Positions 27,001-36,000 of a DNA stretch of 64,000 nucleotides are shown in pieces. The position numbers were made by a program. The DNA is from Oceanispirochaeta sp. (GTDB taxonomy: Bacteria > Spirochaetota > Spirochaetia > DSM-2461), in assembly GCA_963663385.2 (NCBI GenBank), contig CAXXXD010000001.1, forward strand, positions 64,001-128,000, given 5' to 3'. The first letter of the stretch is position 1; every line of letters begins with the position of its first letter.

Positions 27001-30000
27001 CTGACTGTCGGGAAAAGAACGATTATAAGGATTGTTATCCTGAGCCAGTCCGCGCTGCCGAAACTGCCCATCATCCAGAAGATGATCCGCTCCGCCCGGT
27101 CCCGGTGGAGCATCATCAGAAAGGAGACCCCTGCCTGGGCGATATTACTGAAGGCTATCCCCGCCAGCAGAAGGCTCCCTACATTCCCCCGGGAGCGACC
27201 GGCCACAGCCATGATAAACACCATGGTCACCAGACCTCCCGCAAAAGCAGATACGGTTACTCCCAGAACCGGAAAGAACAGCACCGGCAGATTAAGCAGA
27301 AAGAACAGGGCGGCCCCGAAGGAGGCTCCCGATGAGATCCCCAGCAGATAGGGTTCCGCCATGGGGTTCCGGAAAATCCCCTGAAAAACCACACCCGATA
27401 CGGCCAGTCCCGCTCCGGCCAGACCGGCATAGATGACACGGGGAAGGCGGATCTTCATCAGGATGGTGCGGTGGGAATCACTCAGGCCGGATTCCCCCAG
27501 ACTGCCTATAAAGCGGAGAATATCCCGCGGGGCTATGGAGACGGCTCCAATGGAAGCGGCCAGGGGAATCAGCGCAGCCAGGATCAGCAGGAGAAGAGGC
27601 ATAATCCATGTGCGGTTCGACGGATTACTGCTATTCACGGATACCTTCGAACAGGAGAGCCAGGGTTTCAAGTCCATCAATCAGACGGGGCCCCTGACGG
27701 ACAAGCATATTTTCATCCAGCTCATAGATCCGCCCCTCCTGCACGGCCCGCAGATCTTTATAAAGGGAAAGAGAGGTAAAGGATTCTTTCTTTCCCAGAC
27801 CCAGAAAGATAATATCAGGATCCCGTTCAACCAGTATTTCTTTTGAAAAGGACCAGCCCTCTTCGGTTGCGATATTCTCGCCCCCGGCCATGGCAATCAT
27901 ACTGTCTATAAAAGTCCCGGCCCCGGCGGTCCAGTCTCCCCCGTCTCCGAAACCAAGGGCATAATAGACGGCAGGCCTGTTATCCCGGCCTTGCACAGAC
28001 AAAAGGACCCTGTCCTTTCTCTCCATCACATCAGTCATCAGAGCCTCGGCCCTGCTTTCGGCATTCAGCAGCACACCGCAGCCCAGGATAACATCCCCCA
28101 GACCGCTGAAATCCTCAGGGCCATAGAGAAGAGCCACGGGGATTCCCATTTTTTCCAGAGTTTGAACGGTTTCCTCCGACACATGAGTCGATGCCAGGAC
28201 AAGGTCCGGTTCCATGTTGATAATCGTTTCGATATTGGGTTCCATCAGCGTTCCGACCGAGGGGACAGAAAGGGCCGCCGGGGGAAAATTGCAGAAATCG
28301 GTCCGGCCGATCAGCAGGTCTCCCCGGTTCAGGGCATAGACGGTTTCGGTCAGATTCGGCCCCAGGGAAACAACCTTTTCCGGGTAGGCAGACAGTATAA
28401 TCTCCCGTCCTTTGGAATCCTTCAAGACAATGGAACCACTAGGTTTTCCAGAAGAAGAAAGATCTGTCGTCCCATCCGGTCCATCCTCAAAAACTTTGAC
28501 TGGTGGACTATCATTCCCGGATTTTTCCGGTTGTCCGGATGAAAAAGCAAATCCATTAAGGGAAAAGATCAGGAGTATGATTAAAAATCGAAAACGGCCT
28601 GTCATAAGTATATACCTCGTATACTGAATTCAGATAATTTTTCATAACAGGCAGGTTTTCTGGCTTACAGATCAGCAGCTGATTCCCCCTTCCCGGTTTC
28701 CCAGTGGCGAAAGGCATAAATACCCCGGAAACAGCTTCCCTGATTACAGCGGCGGGACCGCAGAGGCATCTCACCTCACTTCCCTATCCTGTATGATGGA
28801 TTCTATGAAAATAAAGGGATACACTCTTTCCTGTCAATATTGTAATTCCATCATTCCCGAAAGATATAGTCATGCCCCAGGCTGAGTAATAATTTACAAA
28901 ATATCACCAAATAATTCATAGATAATCCCTTGAAGAGAGGCTTACAATACGAAATTACTTAAACAATATTTCAGAGGAAGTCAGGTGAGAAACCTGCACG
29001 GACCCGCCACTGTAAGGGCGTGACGCTTTCCGCATAACCACTGGAACAATCCGGGAAGGGCGGAGGAGTAGACCCCGAGTCAGGAAACTCTGGTATTGAA
29101 AAATTATTCAGGCTTCGCGGATTAAGCCGGGATATGCGTGCCCTCAAAGAGTACTGCCTGTCCTGTCTGCTTCCGGCCTAAAGGAAGAAAAAATGAAAGA
29201 ATTGAAAAAGTGGATTGTTCTGCTTGCCGCCCTGTTCGTACTTTCAGGAATGATGTCCTGTGAGATGTTTGAATCAGATGATGAAGAAACCATCGAAGTT
29301 AAGGGAGAGTGGGATACGGGTTATGGTTCAATTATCATAACAGATTCAACTATCTCATGGTATGGGACAGATGGAACTCTCAGCTATGCGTACGATATTG
29401 AAAGCTTCAGCAATGACTCCTGGAACGGATCAGAAACAGGAGAAGGTGATTACGGTTATATGGTTATCAAATATACAACTGCACCAACCTGGAATGACAG
29501 CGTTAACGGATTATATAACATTTTTCGATGGCAGAACCTTAATAGTTCAGGATCACCAGCAAGCTTCGAGTATGGAGAAGCTTATCTGGATGGAACCTAC
29601 CATGAAAGTGCAAGCGAGTCAAAAAATACAGCAACATCATCTAATGGCTATTATTGGTTTTCCTCTGCTACAAAAGTTGATTAAATGATTGAAAAATCCA
29701 TTAAAACAGCCCTGCTCGTCCTGACGACAGGGCTGTTTTTTTTAATAAGCAGCTGTTCAAACGATTCGTCTCCGGCATCGCCCTATAGTCCTGATACCCC
29801 GGACACCTCTGAGGATAATGATAAAACATGGGAAGAGGTCTTATCGGAGGATCCCTCCTACCCTCCCAATGTGTACCTTACAGAATTTGTCGAATGGTCC
29901 CCGGGACAGGTTGGCAGCTCACGGATGGGAACCGAATATACCGATGCAGAGGGTTATCCTCTGGAATCAGGTACGGTGAATGCCTTTGGTCCCCCTGAAG

Positions 30001-33000: not shown

Positions 33001-36000
33001 TAGCCGGATATGAATCGGATGAGATTGTTGTGGTGGATCTTGCCGCCATGACCAGGCTCTCCGGCTATATACCGTCCTTTGAGGAAATTGCTCTACCGGC
33101 GGGAAGTCACCGGGAGAGCCGGATATCTGAAAGTGACAAAAATGCTGTAGGAGAGAATCACAGCAGAGGGACAACCGGCCTGGCCGTTTCCGGAACTGTT
33201 CTGTATGCGGGGAATGTCCGTTACGACAGCAGTATCCTCCTGACGGATTCAAACGGAAACCTGATTAGCTACGAAGGCTCTGATGCCAGGGCCGCCGGAT
33301 ATTTCCGGGAAGGGACCCTCAGCGTTTTCCAGCTGGGAGACAACTTTGCCTCCGCCTCCCTTATCCGCGAAATCAACCTGCAGGAACAGTTCGAAACTCT
33401 GGGAGGCACCCCCTACTTCCCCGGTGACGGCCTGAACCCCCAGTCCCTCTTTGTTCTGGAGGGGAAATTGCATATTATCTGCACGGGAACCAACGGCGGT
33501 TCGGCACGAACCTACACCTCCGGCGAATATATCCCGAATGGGTATAGCGAGGGAAATATCGTCCCGGGAACCGATCCGGATGACGGGGTTGTTCTTGTCA
33601 TGGACCTGACAGATCCCCTGAATCCCGGCCTTGAAAAAATCATCTCTATAGGCGGTTCCCCCTCGGGATTCCGGGATTCTGCAGATACGGCGGGAAAAGT
33701 CCTCTACCTGGCGGGAGTGGGCGGAATCCAGTCCTATAACTATGCAGCGGAAACAGTACTCAGAGGATCGGACAATACCATTCTGGCCGGCAGCGATCCT
33801 TCGACGGACTTCTACTCCCATGTTCTCTACAGTTCAGGACGACTCTATGTTTCGGATTACACCCATGACAAACTGAATATTCTGATTGTTTCGGATAACG
33901 GTACGAATTACAGTTATGAACTGGCGGAATCCCATACCATAGGAGATGGACCGGGGGCTTTGACGGTTATGACGCGGTAGAGAGTTTAAAAACCAAACCT
34001 CCCCTTTCACCTCCTCAGGAGGGGGATAATCTCCTGTGTCCCCTTTTCTCAGGAGGGGAATAGTCCGTTTTGCCTGTTTATACAAAGGAGAAAATGAAAA
34101 CTATGACTCCCCTCCAACCCCACTCAATCTCCCCGGAGGGGAGACGTCAATTCGGTTTCCCTCCCTTGGAGGGATTAAGGGAGGCCGAGGGGTTGGGGGA
34201 GGTCTGGATTAGGTGAGGATTAGCCCTTAAATCAACCGGAAAGAAAAAGTCTTCCAGACCTGGACAGATTCTTCCCTCCGGGGGAAACGCCACCCTTTTT
34301 TCACCGTATTGAGAACAGCTTTATCCAGGAGCTCATGACCGGAACTCTTTTCAAGGATAAGGGATTCCACTTTCCCCTTTTTGTTTATCACGAAAGAAAC
34401 GGTAACATCCCCTTCCCACTCCATCCGCTTTGCCTGAGAGGGGTAGGAGGGAGGAGGCATTTGAGCCCTGCCGGAAAAATCCAGGGAATCCAGCTTCTGA
34501 CCTGTAAACCCGGCAGACTCGACAGGTTCGTATTCCTGTGAGACAAATTCTTCTCCCTGTCGGGTAGGGTCGATTCCGGACTCTGCAAACCCGTCGTTCT
34601 GCAGAACAGGTGCATTTTCAGCCATAACCGGTTCGCGTCCCTGTTCATCAGCTTTGATTTCGTCTACAACAGGACCTCTATCTGATTCGACAGGTTTGTC
34701 ATTCTGCGGGGCGGTCTCCACTTTCTGTATGGCCGGTACCGGAATCTGTGGCGCCGGGAGGTCTTCACTGATCCTCTCCGGCCCGATTGTTTCTGGTTCC
34801 CCTATAACCGGAGGGGCCGCAAGAGAAACTGAGAGAACCGGCAGGGACTCAACTGCTTCCAGAAAGGAAAACTTCAAATTCCTGTCCAGAACGAACAGGG
34901 CAATGCTGTGGAGGAGAACGGAGAGTATAAGGGCATTTTTAAAGATTTTATTCCGGGTATGCAAAAAATTATCCTGTCAATAAGTTCCTTAGTATAAACG
35001 GTTAAACCTTTTCCTCCAATAGAAGAGCCTTTGATCTTCCGGAAATCCCCTTGAAAAAAACAGATTTTTACCCTGTAATGTTTCTATGAAGAGACGTCCT
35101 TTCTTTTTCCTGTTTATTCTATTCTGCCTGATTCAGCCGCTGACCGCCCATCCCCATATGATGCTCACCAGCCGCTGTGCCCTTCACTTTGAAAACGACC
35201 TTATCAAGGGGATTAAACTGGAATGGGAATTCGATAAGTTCTTCAGTGCGGATATCCGTTTCTCTTTTGATGCTGATAAAAACGGGACTTACGATAAAGA
35301 CGAAACAAATGAAGTGTACAAGTTCGCCTTCAGCAATCTGGAAAAATACAATTACTTTACCTTTTTCCGTGAAAAGGATCACCGTTTTACTCCGGACAGG
35401 GTTGAGGATTTCAGTGTCTGGAATATAGACGATGAAACAGTAGCCTACAGCTTCTACATTCCCCTGAACAACTTTACAGGAAATGAATTGAATATTGCCG
35501 TTTATGACTACAGCTTTTTCTGCAATGTCAGCTATGACGAGAAAAATCCCGTTGTCCTGGACATGACCGGCTGCACGGTTAGCCCGGAGTTCAAACTGGC
35601 CGAGAACAGGGACTACCCCGTTTATTACGATCCCTTTGCCCCGGCATCGGATCTTTCTCTCCATGACAAGTGGCGTCCCGGACTGGAGACATTCTACCCG
35701 ACGGAGATTCAGATTGAATTCTGATCTGTATAGAAAGCTGATCCTTATCGGCTTTATCATTCTGCTCCCCGGACTGTACATCGGAGCCAATCCTTTTCTG
35801 GGTTCTGCCGAAGAGCCGGCGGCACAGGCAGCCAGCTCCGGTCCCACACCGGAAGGACTGGCTGAAAAACAGCTGGACTTGAGGAACCGGATGGGCGACA
35901 TCCTGATATCCCTTAAAGAGGGACACTCTACCCGTTTGCTGATGGTATTGTACGCACTCTCCTTTCTTTACGGAGGGCTTCATGCTTCCGGTCCGGGGCA

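Follow-up and report, generated by a model that had tools for sequence, protein, structure and literature searches.

The genes described here, which lie in a 64,000-nucleotide window of Oceanispirochaeta sp. (the whole stretch of DNA that we analysed), probably encode a corrinoid (vitamin B12) uptake system on the Bacteroides plan, consisting of BtuB, a BtuG-like lid (g76) and a BtuH-like lipoprotein (g74), for which we infer that the lipoproteins are exposed at the surface, that g76 and g74 bind corrinoid, and in which order it is handed over. The survey's finding that this spirochaete has a BtuB-lipoprotein capture machinery is supported by context, fold, transitive homology and a model of the g76-transporter complex. 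The helper proteins would be very distant relatives of BtuG and BtuH, so that this B12-scavenging strategy would extend well beyond gut Bacteroidetes, to a marine-type spirochaete.

Gene order and its conservation

The aptamer at the head of the operon covers the full Rfam model (1–189) with 79.8 bits against a gathering score of 31.5 (E 5e-18), and the four ORFs behind it (g73, g74, the transporter gene and g76; Table 1) are as the survey had claimed, forming a tight array with intergenic distances of 0, 4 and -4 nt. No terminator-like site was found between this aptamer and g73, and the Shine-Dalgarno sequence is unpaired in the MFE fold of 29095-29205 (z -1.07). The reading frame of g76 runs from a GTG at 32574; a TTG at 32601, 9 nt past AAAGGAGG, overlaps the TGA stop of the transporter gene and is the likely start, hence the 459-aa form. 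A second, divergent aptamer, absent from the survey, lies upstream of btuFCD (25798..28605, minus strand), which encodes a periplasmic binding protein and an ABC importer. The genome also has genes for CbiC, CbiD and CobS and is therefore no obvious B12 auxotroph.

Table 1. Features of the B12 locus, with positions in the window
Feature	Position	Strand	Basis or assignment
btuD	25798-26610	-	Pfam ABC_tran 5.2e-31
btuC	26610-27680	-	Pfam FecCD 1.1e-87
btuF	27631-28605	-	Pfam Peripla_BP_2 9.4e-29; NCBIfam BtuF PRK03379 8.1e-16, below cut-off
Second Cobalamin riboswitch, divergent, upstream of btuF-btuC-btuD	28633..28844	-	Rfam RF00174, 79.0 bits, E 8.2e-18
Cobalamin riboswitch aptamer upstream of g73-g74-btuB-g76	28932..29110	+	Rfam RF00174
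g73, 163-aa lipoprotein, operon gene 1	29193..29684	+	ORF, ..GMMSC lipobox-like end
g74, 318-aa lipoprotein, BtuH-type globular domain at residues ~57-318	29685..30641	+	Structure model, Foldseek, VIA, sequence bridge
BtuB-like TonB-dependent transporter, 652 aa	30646..32604	+	Pfam Plug 6.6e-25
g76, 459-aa seven-bladed YVTN/YncE-type propeller lipoprotein	32601..33980	+	Predicted BtuG-like lid
tonB, convergent with the operon	34227..34964	-	Pfam TonB_C 2.6e-19

The transporter matches NCBIfam BtuB PRK10641 from end to end (8-652 on 7-617, 1.7e-33) and TonB-B12 TIGR01779 at 3.5e-37, far below the equivalog cut-offs of both models, so that its assignment to B12 is based on the riboswitch and btuFCD context. 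Each of the three other products begins with a hydrophobic stretch ending in Cys (..GMMSC in g73, ..LISSC in g74 and ..LFFSC in g76), and these lipobox-like N-termini, which the survey had reported and which we read again from the ORFs, make them predicted lipoproteins. The first, g73, stays without assignment, as before, with no match in Pfam (E<=0.1), NCBIfam or the PDB; its nearest Atlas clusters (score 0.94) are spirochaete and bear the automatic name 'Lipocalin-like domain-containing protein'. Of 13 spirochaete loci compared, 11 have a g73-like domain, with two copies in L017 and a link to Big_2 in L019, and among the loci examined the family was seen in spirochaete-labelled ones only. 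We take g73 to be a small predicted lipoprotein from a family not described so far, and part of the same B12 module.

Synteny in relatives, a point that the survey had left aside, was followed in these 13 loci, all from other spirochaete genomes. Transporter and propeller share one gene string in all 13 and are directly adjacent in 12; in L032, BtuF separates them. Eleven loci come with a Cobalamin or AdoCbl riboswitch (none was found in L019 and L020), and a g74-like gene is present in ten; nine have a TonB gene beside the pair, on the same strand and immediately after the propeller in L016-L019 and L021. Back-to-back cobalamin riboswitches occur in L015 also. For a cross-phylum sample we turned to species-representative genomes, in which the short propellers discussed below have 206 relatives; the best 80 of these gave 79 distinct loci, from about ten other phylum-level groups. 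In 71 of the 79, the gene immediately upstream, in the same orientation, encodes a TonB-dependent transporter. Rfam was run on 20 consecutive loci (L047-L066, none labelled spirochaete and four labelled just 'bacterium'), eight of which carry an upstream Cobalamin riboswitch on the same strand. This synteny strongly supports the reading of the locus as BtuB with BtuG-like and BtuH-like partners.

g74 and the BtuH-type domain

The structure model of g74 (pLDDT 91.2, pTM 0.85) reproduced the survey's figures, with 8blw_B first in Foldseek (9e-6), 7biz_A second (3.2e-3) and the next match at 3.3e-2. In VIA, a search of 48,161 chains independent of Foldseek, the BtuG1 H-domain and BtuH2 are the sole rows with Z>=8 (11.7-11.9, over 184-192 residues), and the next ranks, at Z 6.5-7.1, go to CBM32 and discoidin modules, which bears out the earlier call of a domain of the BtuH or BtuG1 C-terminal type. 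The survey had further stated that no sequence method recognises g74 or g76. For direct searches this stands, since Pfam (E<=0.1) gives nothing for g74 and other direct sequence searches give no link to BtuH, but profile searches through intermediates reach both BtuG and BtuH. The g74-family profile A6 matches the proteins P0244 (8.0e-15) and P0307 (1.4e-12), of which the former matches 7biz_A (5e-16) and the latter 8blw_B (9.3e-18); at the level of sequence profiles, these bridging proteins show g74 to be homologous to BtuH2 and the BtuG1 H-domain. In them a PKD domain stands immediately N-terminal of the shared domain, and BtuH is likewise described with PKD before its B12-binding domain (Putnam 2022, PMC8941943).

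A distant relationship leads to the LIC_13355 family (Leptospira lipoprotein, NCBIfam NF033170), which in the protein atlas is closest to g74 among named neighbours (0.96). The g74-family profile matches two proteins (4.7e-9 and 8.5e-6) that fit NF033170 at E ~1e-114 and 1e-118; the NF033170 model gives no match to g74 itself, and g74 relatives score 15-34 bits against its cut-off of 120. Neither riboswitch nor transporter was found within 8 kb in two LIC_13355-family loci.

The mapping of cobalamin contacts, which the survey had not carried out, goes against simple conservation: where BtuH2 contact residues can be mapped, they are mostly not conserved in g74. Asn399 corresponds to K149 and Trp577-Leu578 to Q294-D295; Gln333 falls on Q75, in an ambiguous alignment and at a position variable across the family, and His476, Tyr510 and Trp511 are unalignable. 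This pattern favours a reading in which the lipoproteins are accessory to the transporter and bind no corrinoid, g76 as a structural cap or assembly factor and g74 as a glycan- or host-matrix-binding module, for which the CBM32 and discoidin folds ranked second, the reported binding of laminin and plasminogen by LIC_13355 (PMC11891782), and Bacteroides BtuK2 and BtuL, which a review places in B12 operons yet without cobamide binding (PMC13616437), also speak. We consider this unlikely. In the g74 family an invariant motif, LDGQD, aligns exactly with the BtuH2 B12-contact site Trp577-Leu578, which argues for a conserved ligand site in g74; in addition, the BtuH matches stand almost 5 Z units above the CBM rows, and g74-like genes stay in riboswitch-controlled B12 operons in ten of the 13 spirochaete loci.

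The g76 propeller and its fit to the transporter

The figures for g76 were likewise reproduced (pLDDT 91.5, pTM 0.89; BtuG chains at Foldseek ranks 1-4, 5e-12 to 8e-12). Its earlier identification as a BtuG-family propeller is supported by context, fold, transitive homology and the complex model taken together, but the fold is generic: because BtuG2 (Z 30.6) ties in VIA with 6-phosphogluconolactonase and YbhE (Z 30.5), the fold alone does not tell BtuG from other seven-bladed propellers. The highest identities to g76 in that search, 19-20%, are those of BtuG chains. Pfam returns Lactonase only, sub-threshold (0.031), with no match to YNCE or to DUF5074, the model matched by the one verified Bacteroidota BtuG relative examined.

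The profile of the g76 clade (A1) found no BtuG in the PDB and gave an hhalign probability of 16% with a verified BtuG relative, where an unrelated YVTN control reached 5.9%. With A5, a profile of 31 short spirochaete propellers, it aligns over its full length (355 columns, probability 100, E 3.5e-62), and A5 in turn reaches BtuG1 at 7.9e-21 and 3.8e-20, BtuG2 at 2.1e-9 and BtuG3 at 3.8e-9 (whole BtuG1/2/3 range 8e-21 to 2e-5). Four of the 31 A5 members have DUF5074 at E<=0.001 and 19 have YNCE; the DUF5074 cut-off was exceeded by three short propellers, of which two belong to A5. DUF5074 is carried, too, by a protein from Tannerella with a BtuG1 match at 2.9e-35. Profile searching through intermediate relatives hence shows a tie between g76 and BtuG. 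Other propellers matched by A5 include Lp49 (3BWS, 6e-15), YncE (3VGZ, 5.1e-11) and, best of all, the archaeal S-layer YVTN propeller 1L0Q (6e-38), and since the last outscores BtuG1, g76 may be a YVTN propeller that was recruited independently.

When g76 (22-459) was modelled with the transporter (148-652, without the plug domain), ipSAE was 0.80, 0.79 and 0.80, against 0.00 in three controls. Among solved complexes 116 of 157 attain the mark that g76 and the transporter attained, and among mismatched pairs 2 of 215; as solved BtuB-BtuG complexes exist, this pass may partly mirror likeness to them. The runs share at least 80% of contacts, with partner pLDDT of at least 89. Along the transporter, the contacted segments return at intervals of ~40-55 residues, and one of them, 632-638, immediately precedes the C-terminal strand; from barrel topology, extracellular loops would be expected to show such a pattern. 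The model thus places g76 as a predicted lid on the loops of the BtuB-like transporter.

In spirochaetes, lipoproteins occur on the inner as well as the outer face of the outer membrane, and the plug-less model left the opening of the barrel to the periplasm unoccupied, both of which would suit lipoproteins that face the periplasm from the inner leaflet as corrinoid chaperones or TonB-side partners. This we judge very unlikely, because the model still put g76 on the extracellular side, BtuF already provides a dedicated binder in the periplasm, and LIC_13355, the distant relative of g74, has been located to the outer-membrane fraction and the surface by proteomic and antibody work (PMC11891782). 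Least probable of all is that the operon imports non-complete cobamides, such as cobinamide-type precursors for salvage, with the riboswitch merely coupling import to B12 status, which CbiC/CbiD, CobS and the sub-cut-off BtuB scores would suit; btuFCD is under the second cobalamin riboswitch, and as BtuG and BtuH are reported to bind both cobinamide and cobalamin (PMC10404256, PMC8941943), this would be a variant of corrinoid uptake on the Bacteroides plan and no true rival to it.

In such an uptake system, low cellular cobalamin would let the riboswitch permit expression of the four co-translated genes, placing the BtuB-like transporter in the outer membrane and lipid-anchored g76 on its extracellular loops. 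By analogy with BtuG, g76 would take corrinoid on the propeller face toward the transporter and pass it on at lid closure; the neighbouring TonB would power passage, and BtuF with BtuCD would finish import. As a lipid-anchored, single-domain BtuH relative, g74 would most likely be an extra surface corrinoid binder or relay.

Comparison with known systems

BtuB1G1, BtuB2G2 and BtuB3G3 of Bacteroides thetaiotaomicron (PDB 8BLW, 8BMX and 8P97; Wexler 2018, PMC6143338; Abellon-Ruiz 2023, PMC10404256) have, as here, a lipoprotein gene immediately 3' of btuB in a cobalamin-riboswitch operon. BtuG resembles g76 in being a seven-bladed propeller, of a common YVTN/YncE superfamily by transitive profile search, and in capping the transporter loops, which g76 does by model only. 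In contrast to BtuG, regarded in its literature as Bacteroidetes-exclusive by BlastP, g76 belongs to Spirochaetota, shares just 14-20% identity, has no DUF5074 match and is ~100 residues longer, with four insertions (~164-185, 212-231, 260-275 and 302-323), three of which touch the transporter in the complex model. In sequence, the short spirochaete propellers are in general closest to YVTN/YncE propellers (1L0Q, E. coli YncE and leptospiral Lp49), for which we know of no described link to a TonB-dependent transporter; unlike them, the short-propeller clade is tied to one in the 71 of 79 loci counted above.

LIC_13355 is a lipoprotein like g74 but is studied as a host-binding protein, with no mention of B12 (PMC11891782). 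Compared with BtuH2 (7BIZ) and BtuG1, g74 consists of a single domain that follows a ~35-residue linker and has neither PKD/Ig domains nor a fused propeller, and it departs from BtuH2 in its B12-contact residues and in escaping direct sequence searches. It shares with BtuH2 and the BtuG1 H-domain (8BLW chain B) the globular fold, and BtuH2 is, like g74, a lipoprotein whose gene lies in a btuB operon (Putnam 2022, PMC8941943).

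The riboswitch-headed operon and its neighbours

Two Cobalamin aptamers stand back-to-back in the window (Rfam). The survey's finding of a four-gene operon behind the plus-strand one, consisting of three lipoprotein genes (g73, g74 and g76) and a BtuB-like transporter, is confirmed by the aptamer score, the open reading frames and the N-termini read from the translations. Each lipoprotein begins with a hydrophobic stretch that has a Cys at its end, which we take to fit the relaxed lipobox of spirochaetes. In g76 this stretch reads ..LLSLLFFSC from the translation, and its Cys21 (numbering of the 459-aa form) is near-invariant in 32 homologues. 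Because the four genes abut with spacings of 0, 4 and -4 nt, the arrangement suggests one translationally coupled unit; the TTG start of g76 overlaps the TGA stop of the transporter and is preceded by AAAGGAGG. No terminator-like site was found before g73, and a hairpin at 29170-29187 picked out by eye as sequestering the SD was rejected, being absent from the MFE fold (z -1.07).

Features of the cobalamin locus, in window positions
Feature	Position	Strand	Evidence and remarks
Cobalamin aptamer 2	28633-28844	-	Rfam 79.0 bits; heads btuF-btuC-btuD
Cobalamin aptamer 1	28932-29110	+	Rfam 79.8 bits; heads g73-g74-transporter-g76
btuF, btuC, btuD	after the minus-strand aptamer	-	Peripla_BP_2 9.4e-29; FecCD 1.1e-87; ABC_tran 5.2e-31
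g73	29193-29684	+	163 aa ORF
g74	29685-30641	+	318 aa ORF
TonB-dependent transporter	30646-32604	+	652 aa; Plug 6.6e-25 (Pfam)
g76	ORF from GTG 32574; TTG 32601 start gives 459 aa	+	459-aa form as in the databases
tonB	34227-34964	convergent with the operon	TonB_C 2.6e-19
DUF1007 gene and NicO-type nickel/cobalt transporter gene	35086-36604	+	DUF1007 3.1e-38; NicO 3.6e-10; the genes overlap

The transporter aligns from residue 8 to 652 with positions 7-617 of the 617 in the E. coli-type BtuB model PRK10641 (NCBIfam), and this end-to-end alignment, together with its Plug domain, gives it the size of a BtuB, that is, a Plug plus a 22-strand barrel. Its scores lie far below the BtuB equivalog cut-offs (116.1 against 836 bits for PRK10641 and 128.2 against 599.7 for TIGR01779), and a siderophore-receptor subfamily model scores it alike, at 129 bits. 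The assignment of the transporter to B12 therefore rests on context. Just past tonB lies the DUF1007 and NicO pair, which also occurs beside the B12 locus in two other spirochaete genomes (L012 and L015). The Rfam scan placed no riboswitch ahead of it, and the pair may act with the B12 locus in a cobalt-related role.

Many microbes require vitamin B12 but few produce it, and the systems that capture it therefore help to shape microbial communities. The genome under study holds seven Cobalamin riboswitches and ten B12-binding-domain matches at E<=0.001, six of them above the cut-off. It also encodes CbiC and CbiD in adjacent genes, with CobS elsewhere (G000; C2:204270-205690 and C3:1466451-1467140). 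The organism thus probably makes or remodels corrinoids besides importing them. B12 auxotrophy as a rationale for the locus is rejected for this genome in view of CbiC, CbiD and CobS; given these corrin-synthesis genes, possession of capture machinery is not limited to auxotrophs.

The propeller g76 and its modelled complex with the transporter

The predicted structure of g76 is a seven-bladed beta-propeller (pLDDT 91.5, pTM 0.89, from a 32-sequence alignment). Foldseek placed BtuG chains at ranks 1-4 (8bmx_D at 5.0e-12, 8okv_D, 8bmz_A and 8bn0), followed by the archaeal YVTN protein 1l0q (8.7e-12) and AztD (4.5e-11). With VIA-align, g76 superposed on BtuG2 (8bmz_A) over 310 residues with Z 30.6 and an rmsd of 3.1, and on both 6-phosphogluconolactonase 6nau_A and 1ri6 with Z 30.5 each; identity to g76 was highest in the BtuG rows, at 19-20%. 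The fold ranking was rejected as proof that g76 is a BtuG, since VIA-align ties BtuG with the lactonases, and the survey's own caveat of a generic fold is borne out by the same pair of values.

Direct sequence comparison gave little to link the two. Neither Pfam nor NCBIfam assigned g76 or g74 to a family. DUF5074 (PF16819) had no match in g76 at E<=0.1, and A1, the profile of the g76 clade, found no BtuG in the PDB. When A1 was compared by hhalign with a Tannerella protein that is a verified relative of BtuG1 (2.9e-35 to 8blw_B, the BtuG1 chain; DUF5074 44.9 bits), the probability was 16%, against 5.9% for an unrelated YVTN control. Shorter propellers (332-408 aa) hold the same operon position in other spirochaete genomes, and a profile of 31 of them without any member of the g76 clade (A5) aligned with A1 over 355 columns (hhalign, probability 100, E 3.5e-62). 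Searched against the PDB, A5 matched BtuG1 at 7.9e-21 (8ptd, 8ptf) and 3.8e-20 (8blw_B), BtuG2 at 2.1e-9 (8bmx_D) and about 1e-6 (8bn0, 8bmy, 3dsm, 8bai), and BtuG3 at 3.8e-9 (8p97_B). Its best match was the archaeal YVTN S-layer protein 1l0q (6e-38), ahead of BtuG, and leptospiral Lp49, hydrazine synthase beta and YncE ranked among the BtuG rows. At E<=0.001 in Pfam, 19 of the 31 short propellers matched YNCE and 4 of 31 matched DUF5074; at least two of the 31, P0084 (37.7 bits) and P0087 (28.2 bits), exceeded the DUF5074 cut-off of 27.2.

Judged from these profiles, g76 is a divergent propeller of the YVTN/YncE superfamily, to which BtuG also belongs, and a specific sister relationship between g76 and BtuG is plausible. 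The survey had called g76 a BtuG-family propeller. The seven blades, the BtuG chains at Foldseek ranks 1-4 and the transitive homology speak for this, but the fold is generic and g76 has no match to DUF5074. Both g76 and g74 are single-copy in their own genome, and the named homologues of each are spirochaetes throughout (Oceanispirochaeta and MAGs of Spirochaetales and Spirochaetaceae). Compared with the short spirochaete propellers, g76 has four insertions, around residues 164-185, 212-231, 260-275 and 302-323.

The transporter and g76 were modelled as a complex, using residues 148-652 of the transporter (barrel and loops, from the 12-row alignment A4, with the plug left out) and mature g76 (22-459, from A1). 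Three runs gave ipSAE values of 0.80, 0.79 and 0.80, against 0.00 for the best of three controls; among solved complexes this ipSAE mark is attained by 116 of 157, among mismatched pairs by 2 of 215. At least 80% of the contacts agree between runs, and the pLDDT of the partners is at least 89. On the transporter, the contacted segments are 207-210, 257-261, 306-310, 350-362, 496, 552-553, 591-597 and 632-638. Because these segments recur every 40-55 residues, with the last just ahead of the C-terminal strand, and barrels of this kind have their C-terminus in the periplasm, we infer that they would be extracellular loops. On the side of g76, the interface includes the invariant turn S93-G94-Q95-N96 and touches three of the four clade-specific insertions (at 171, 225-232 and 309). 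By a hand count, invariant columns make up 11 of the 36 predicted g76 interface residues against a background of ~22%, which is too weak a difference to use. The model supports a placement in which g76 would cap the extracellular face of the transporter. Its pass may partly reflect likeness to the BtuB-BtuG complexes, because solved examples of these exist. The corrinoid-contact residues of BtuG2 itself are listed in a 2026 review (PMC13616437); a BtuG would be expected to bind corrinoid through them on one face of the propeller.

The g74 domain and its relatives

The predicted structure of g74 (pLDDT 91.2, pTM 0.85) consists of a disordered linker at 24-38 and then one globular domain. Foldseek matched it to the H-domain of BtuG1 (8blw_B, 9e-6, probability 1.00) and to BtuH2 (7biz_A, 3.2e-3, probability 0.99), the next row standing at 3.3e-2 with probability 0.18. 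In a Foldseek-independent search of 48,161 representative chains, only these two proteins reached Z>=8, 8blw_B with Z 11.9 over 192 residues (rmsd 3.8, chain 332-660) and 7biz_B with Z 11.7 over 184 residues (chain 316-593), and CBM32-type modules came next at 7.1. The survey's assignment of the BtuH/BtuG1 B12-domain fold to g74 therefore holds, and it is joined by a bridge in sequence.

Direct profiles of the g74 family (A2 and A6) found no BtuH in the PDB. Profile A6, built from 17 g74-family members and three distant spirochaete relatives, drew 1,204 matches at E<=0.001, of which 205 reach E<=1e-10, from 1.84 billion representative proteins, including P0244 (8.0e-15) and P0307 (1.4e-12; both E-values for the 1.84 billion proteins), each with a PKD domain directly before the region matched by A6. 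P0244 in turn matches BtuH2 (7biz_A) at 5e-16 and the BtuG1 H-domain (8blw_B) at 3.7e-14, and P0307 matches the latter at 9.3e-18. As these two proteins bridge to BtuH, g74 and the B12-binding domain of BtuH are, on sequence grounds, remotely homologous, and their likeness goes beyond the fold. The survey had also stated that no sequence method recognises g74 or g76; this is right for direct searches, which were empty, but not for the bridging profiles, which reach both BtuG and BtuH.

The BtuH2 contacts (Gln333, Asn399, His476, Tyr510, Trp511, Trp577 and Leu578; Putnam 2022) were mapped on g74 through P0244. Gln333 falls at or near Q75, in a register ambiguous by two and at a position variable in the family, Asn399 falls on K149 and Trp577-Leu578 on Q294-D295; the stretch with His476, Tyr510 and Trp511 could not be aligned with g74. 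From the residues found at the mapped positions, the alignable B12-contact residues of BtuH2 appear mostly not to be kept in g74, and the bridging proteins themselves carry Ser at the Trp577 position. Since Q294-D295 sit within L291-D292-G293-Q294-D295, a motif that does not vary among 34 family members, the alignment hints that a functional site is conserved at the place of Trp577-Leu578, with a different chemistry.

Among the relatives of the g74 domain matched by A6 are proteins with PKD, dockerin, SLH or T9SS anchors. One of them, P0334 (1601 aa), combines the domain with three SLH repeats, a cadherin-like domain and DUF4430, presumably a transcobalamin-like B12-binding domain; with this content, P0334 resembles a B12 binder that a monoderm would anchor in its S-layer. 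Two g74-type genes occur in a single spirochaete operon, L016. The first (4286-5743), ahead of the transporter, is a distant form of g74 with an N-terminal Big_2 Ig-like domain and hence a BtuH-like architecture, and the second (9627-10622), after tonB, is a close homologue of g74.

A protein atlas puts g74 beside clusters named 'LIC_13355 family lipoprotein' (0.96). NF033170, the model of that family, had no g74 match at E<=0.1, and relatives of g74 reach 15-34 bits on it, below its cut-off of 120 bits. Proteins at L028 (8082-8912) and L029 (8020-8871) match the LIC_13355 model at about 1e-114 and 1e-118 and are hit by A6 at 4.7e-9 and 8.5e-6; neither a riboswitch nor a transporter was found within 8 kb of them. 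A B12 link for the LIC_13355 family was not found at these two loci and appears only in L031, from another spirochaete family, where a Cobalamin riboswitch (71.5 bits) is followed by a 150-aa ORF and then by a LIC_13355-model protein (150 against 120 bits; 6594-8106, plus strand). Beside the last gene, on the other strand, lie genes for a B12-binding-domain protein and a PocR/AraC regulator. According to excerpts of the host-binding study (PMC11891782), LIC_13355 is a lipoprotein of the outer membrane and the cell surface, with laminin and plasminogen as binding partners, and in these excerpts B12 is unmentioned and a BtuH-type fold not considered. The likeness to g74 gives a testable idea of function for this Leptospira surface lipoprotein.

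Distribution of the module and comparison with Bacteroides systems

We compared 13 loci from other spirochaete genomes, L011-L021 picked by a propeller match and L032-L033 by a weak match to the LIC_13355 model. Transporter and propeller share one gene string in all 13, adjacent in 12 and with BtuF in between in L032. A Cobalamin or AdoCbl riboswitch is present in 11 of 13, the exceptions being L019 and L020, the latter with only 400 nt of contig left beyond the upstream lipoprotein gene. A g73-like gene is found in 11, a g74-like gene in 10 and an adjacent tonB in 9. This synteny, with its pairing at every locus, supports the survey's reading. Within the phylum the distribution is patchy: at E<=1e-10, A5 matched 33 of 301 sampled genomes and 28 of 126 genera, with none in three large spirochaete families (0/28, 0/45 and 0/38), and A1 matched 15 of 41 genomes (the 40 nearest relatives and the genome itself).

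The g73-like domain is encoded by the first gene behind the riboswitch in most spirochaete loci; it is a tandem duplicate in L017 and is fused to Big_2 in L019. The survey had left g73 without an assignment, and so it remains after searches of Pfam, NCBIfam, the PDB and the atlas: these revealed neither a family nor a fold nor a relative in the PDB, the best PDB profile hit was signal-peptide-like (E 4.8), and the atlas neighbours are only unnamed or automatically named spirochaete clusters. We conclude that g73 is a stable part of the module and represents a new family of small lipoproteins.

The short propellers have 206 relatives in a pattern scan that covered each species by one genome, and the best 80 of the 206 gave 79 distinct loci. 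These carry the labels Cloacimonadota (32), spirochaete (12), Zixibacteria (10), Ignavibacteria (5), Armatimonadota (5) and Calditrichota (3), with one each for Latescibacterota, WOR-3, Glassbacteria, Eisenbacteria, Myxococcia, Tenebribacter and Mesoaciditoga and five labelled 'bacterium' only. In 71 of the 79, the propeller gene immediately follows a TonB-dependent transporter gene on its own strand (A4, E 5e-11 to 5e-279), a count to be read for loci selected by propeller motifs and an alignment, A4, that picks up TonB-dependent transporters generally. The exceptions are L037, whose transporter is encoded on the opposite strand, L061 and L105, each on a cut contig, and L081, L090, L094, L095 and L112. 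Many Cloacimonadota loci have a btuD-like gene ahead of the transporter, and L049, L050 and L053 have a transporter, a g74-like gene and two propellers in series. Genes like g73 occur only in the spirochaete-labelled L035, L038, L039, L043 and L044. Among 20 consecutive loci (L047-L066, none labelled as spirochaete and four 'bacterium' only), a same-strand upstream Cobalamin riboswitch was present in 8, and several of the negatives have a cut contig or an operon longer than the 4 kb covered. The loci are evidence that a predicted B12 capture by transporter plus propeller, including lid relatives behind TonB-dependent transporters, is spread over many phyla, with the pair in about ten phylum-level groups.

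The excerpted literature places these proteins more narrowly. By BlastP criteria, btuG was confined to Bacteroidetes (excerpts of Wexler 2018, PMC6143338), and a conserved proximity of transporter and lid was almost confined to Bacteroidota (excerpts of the Price preprint, 10.1101/2023.03.17.533168). BtuH was described with three Firmicutes homologues (Putnam 2022, PMC8941943, in part), which excerpts of the 2026 review (PMC13616437) give as its only ones outside Bacteroidetes, reserving eight clades for BtuJ/DUF4465. Passages of the DUF4465 study (PMC13398666) count Spirochaetota among its clades, and this study, on another protein, was the only one among the matches listed when the full-text literature was searched for BtuG with spirochaetes. 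The term 'BtuG-like' was found nowhere in the full-text literature searched. Supplementary tables of Wexler 2018 and Putnam 2022 hold homologues from beyond Bacteroidetes, and these may bear on how new the spirochaete case is.

Taken together, folds, transitive homology, the complex model and synteny support the survey's reading of a spirochaete BtuB with BtuG-like and BtuH-like lipoproteins. The predicted transporter-plus-lid design with a BtuH-type helper thereby extends to free-living spirochaetes, and for biochemistry the locus holds two new subjects, a BtuH relative reduced to a single compact domain and the g73 family. A wider proposal, which we put forward tentatively and think rather improbable as a whole, is that the g74 domain is only the visible part of a large superfamily, as yet without a name, whose domains bind corrinoids at the cell surface and which includes LIC_13355, that g73 is a new relay or hand-off lipoprotein, and that lipoprotein-assisted B12 capture is general in diderms and not a speciality of Bacteroidota.

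For Bacteroides, both the complexes of BtuB with its BtuG lid and the BtuG1 H-domain have been described (Abellon-Ruiz 2023, PMC10404256, in the parts covered). Compared with BtuH, g74 is without N-terminal PKD/Ig-like domains or a fused propeller, which are common there and not universal; the portion of Putnam 2022 (PMC8941943) covered also lists BtuH homologues without extra domains. By analogy, the evidence supports a spirochaete system that would work like BtuB-BtuG-BtuH, in which g76 would fill the role of BtuG without a match to DUF5074.
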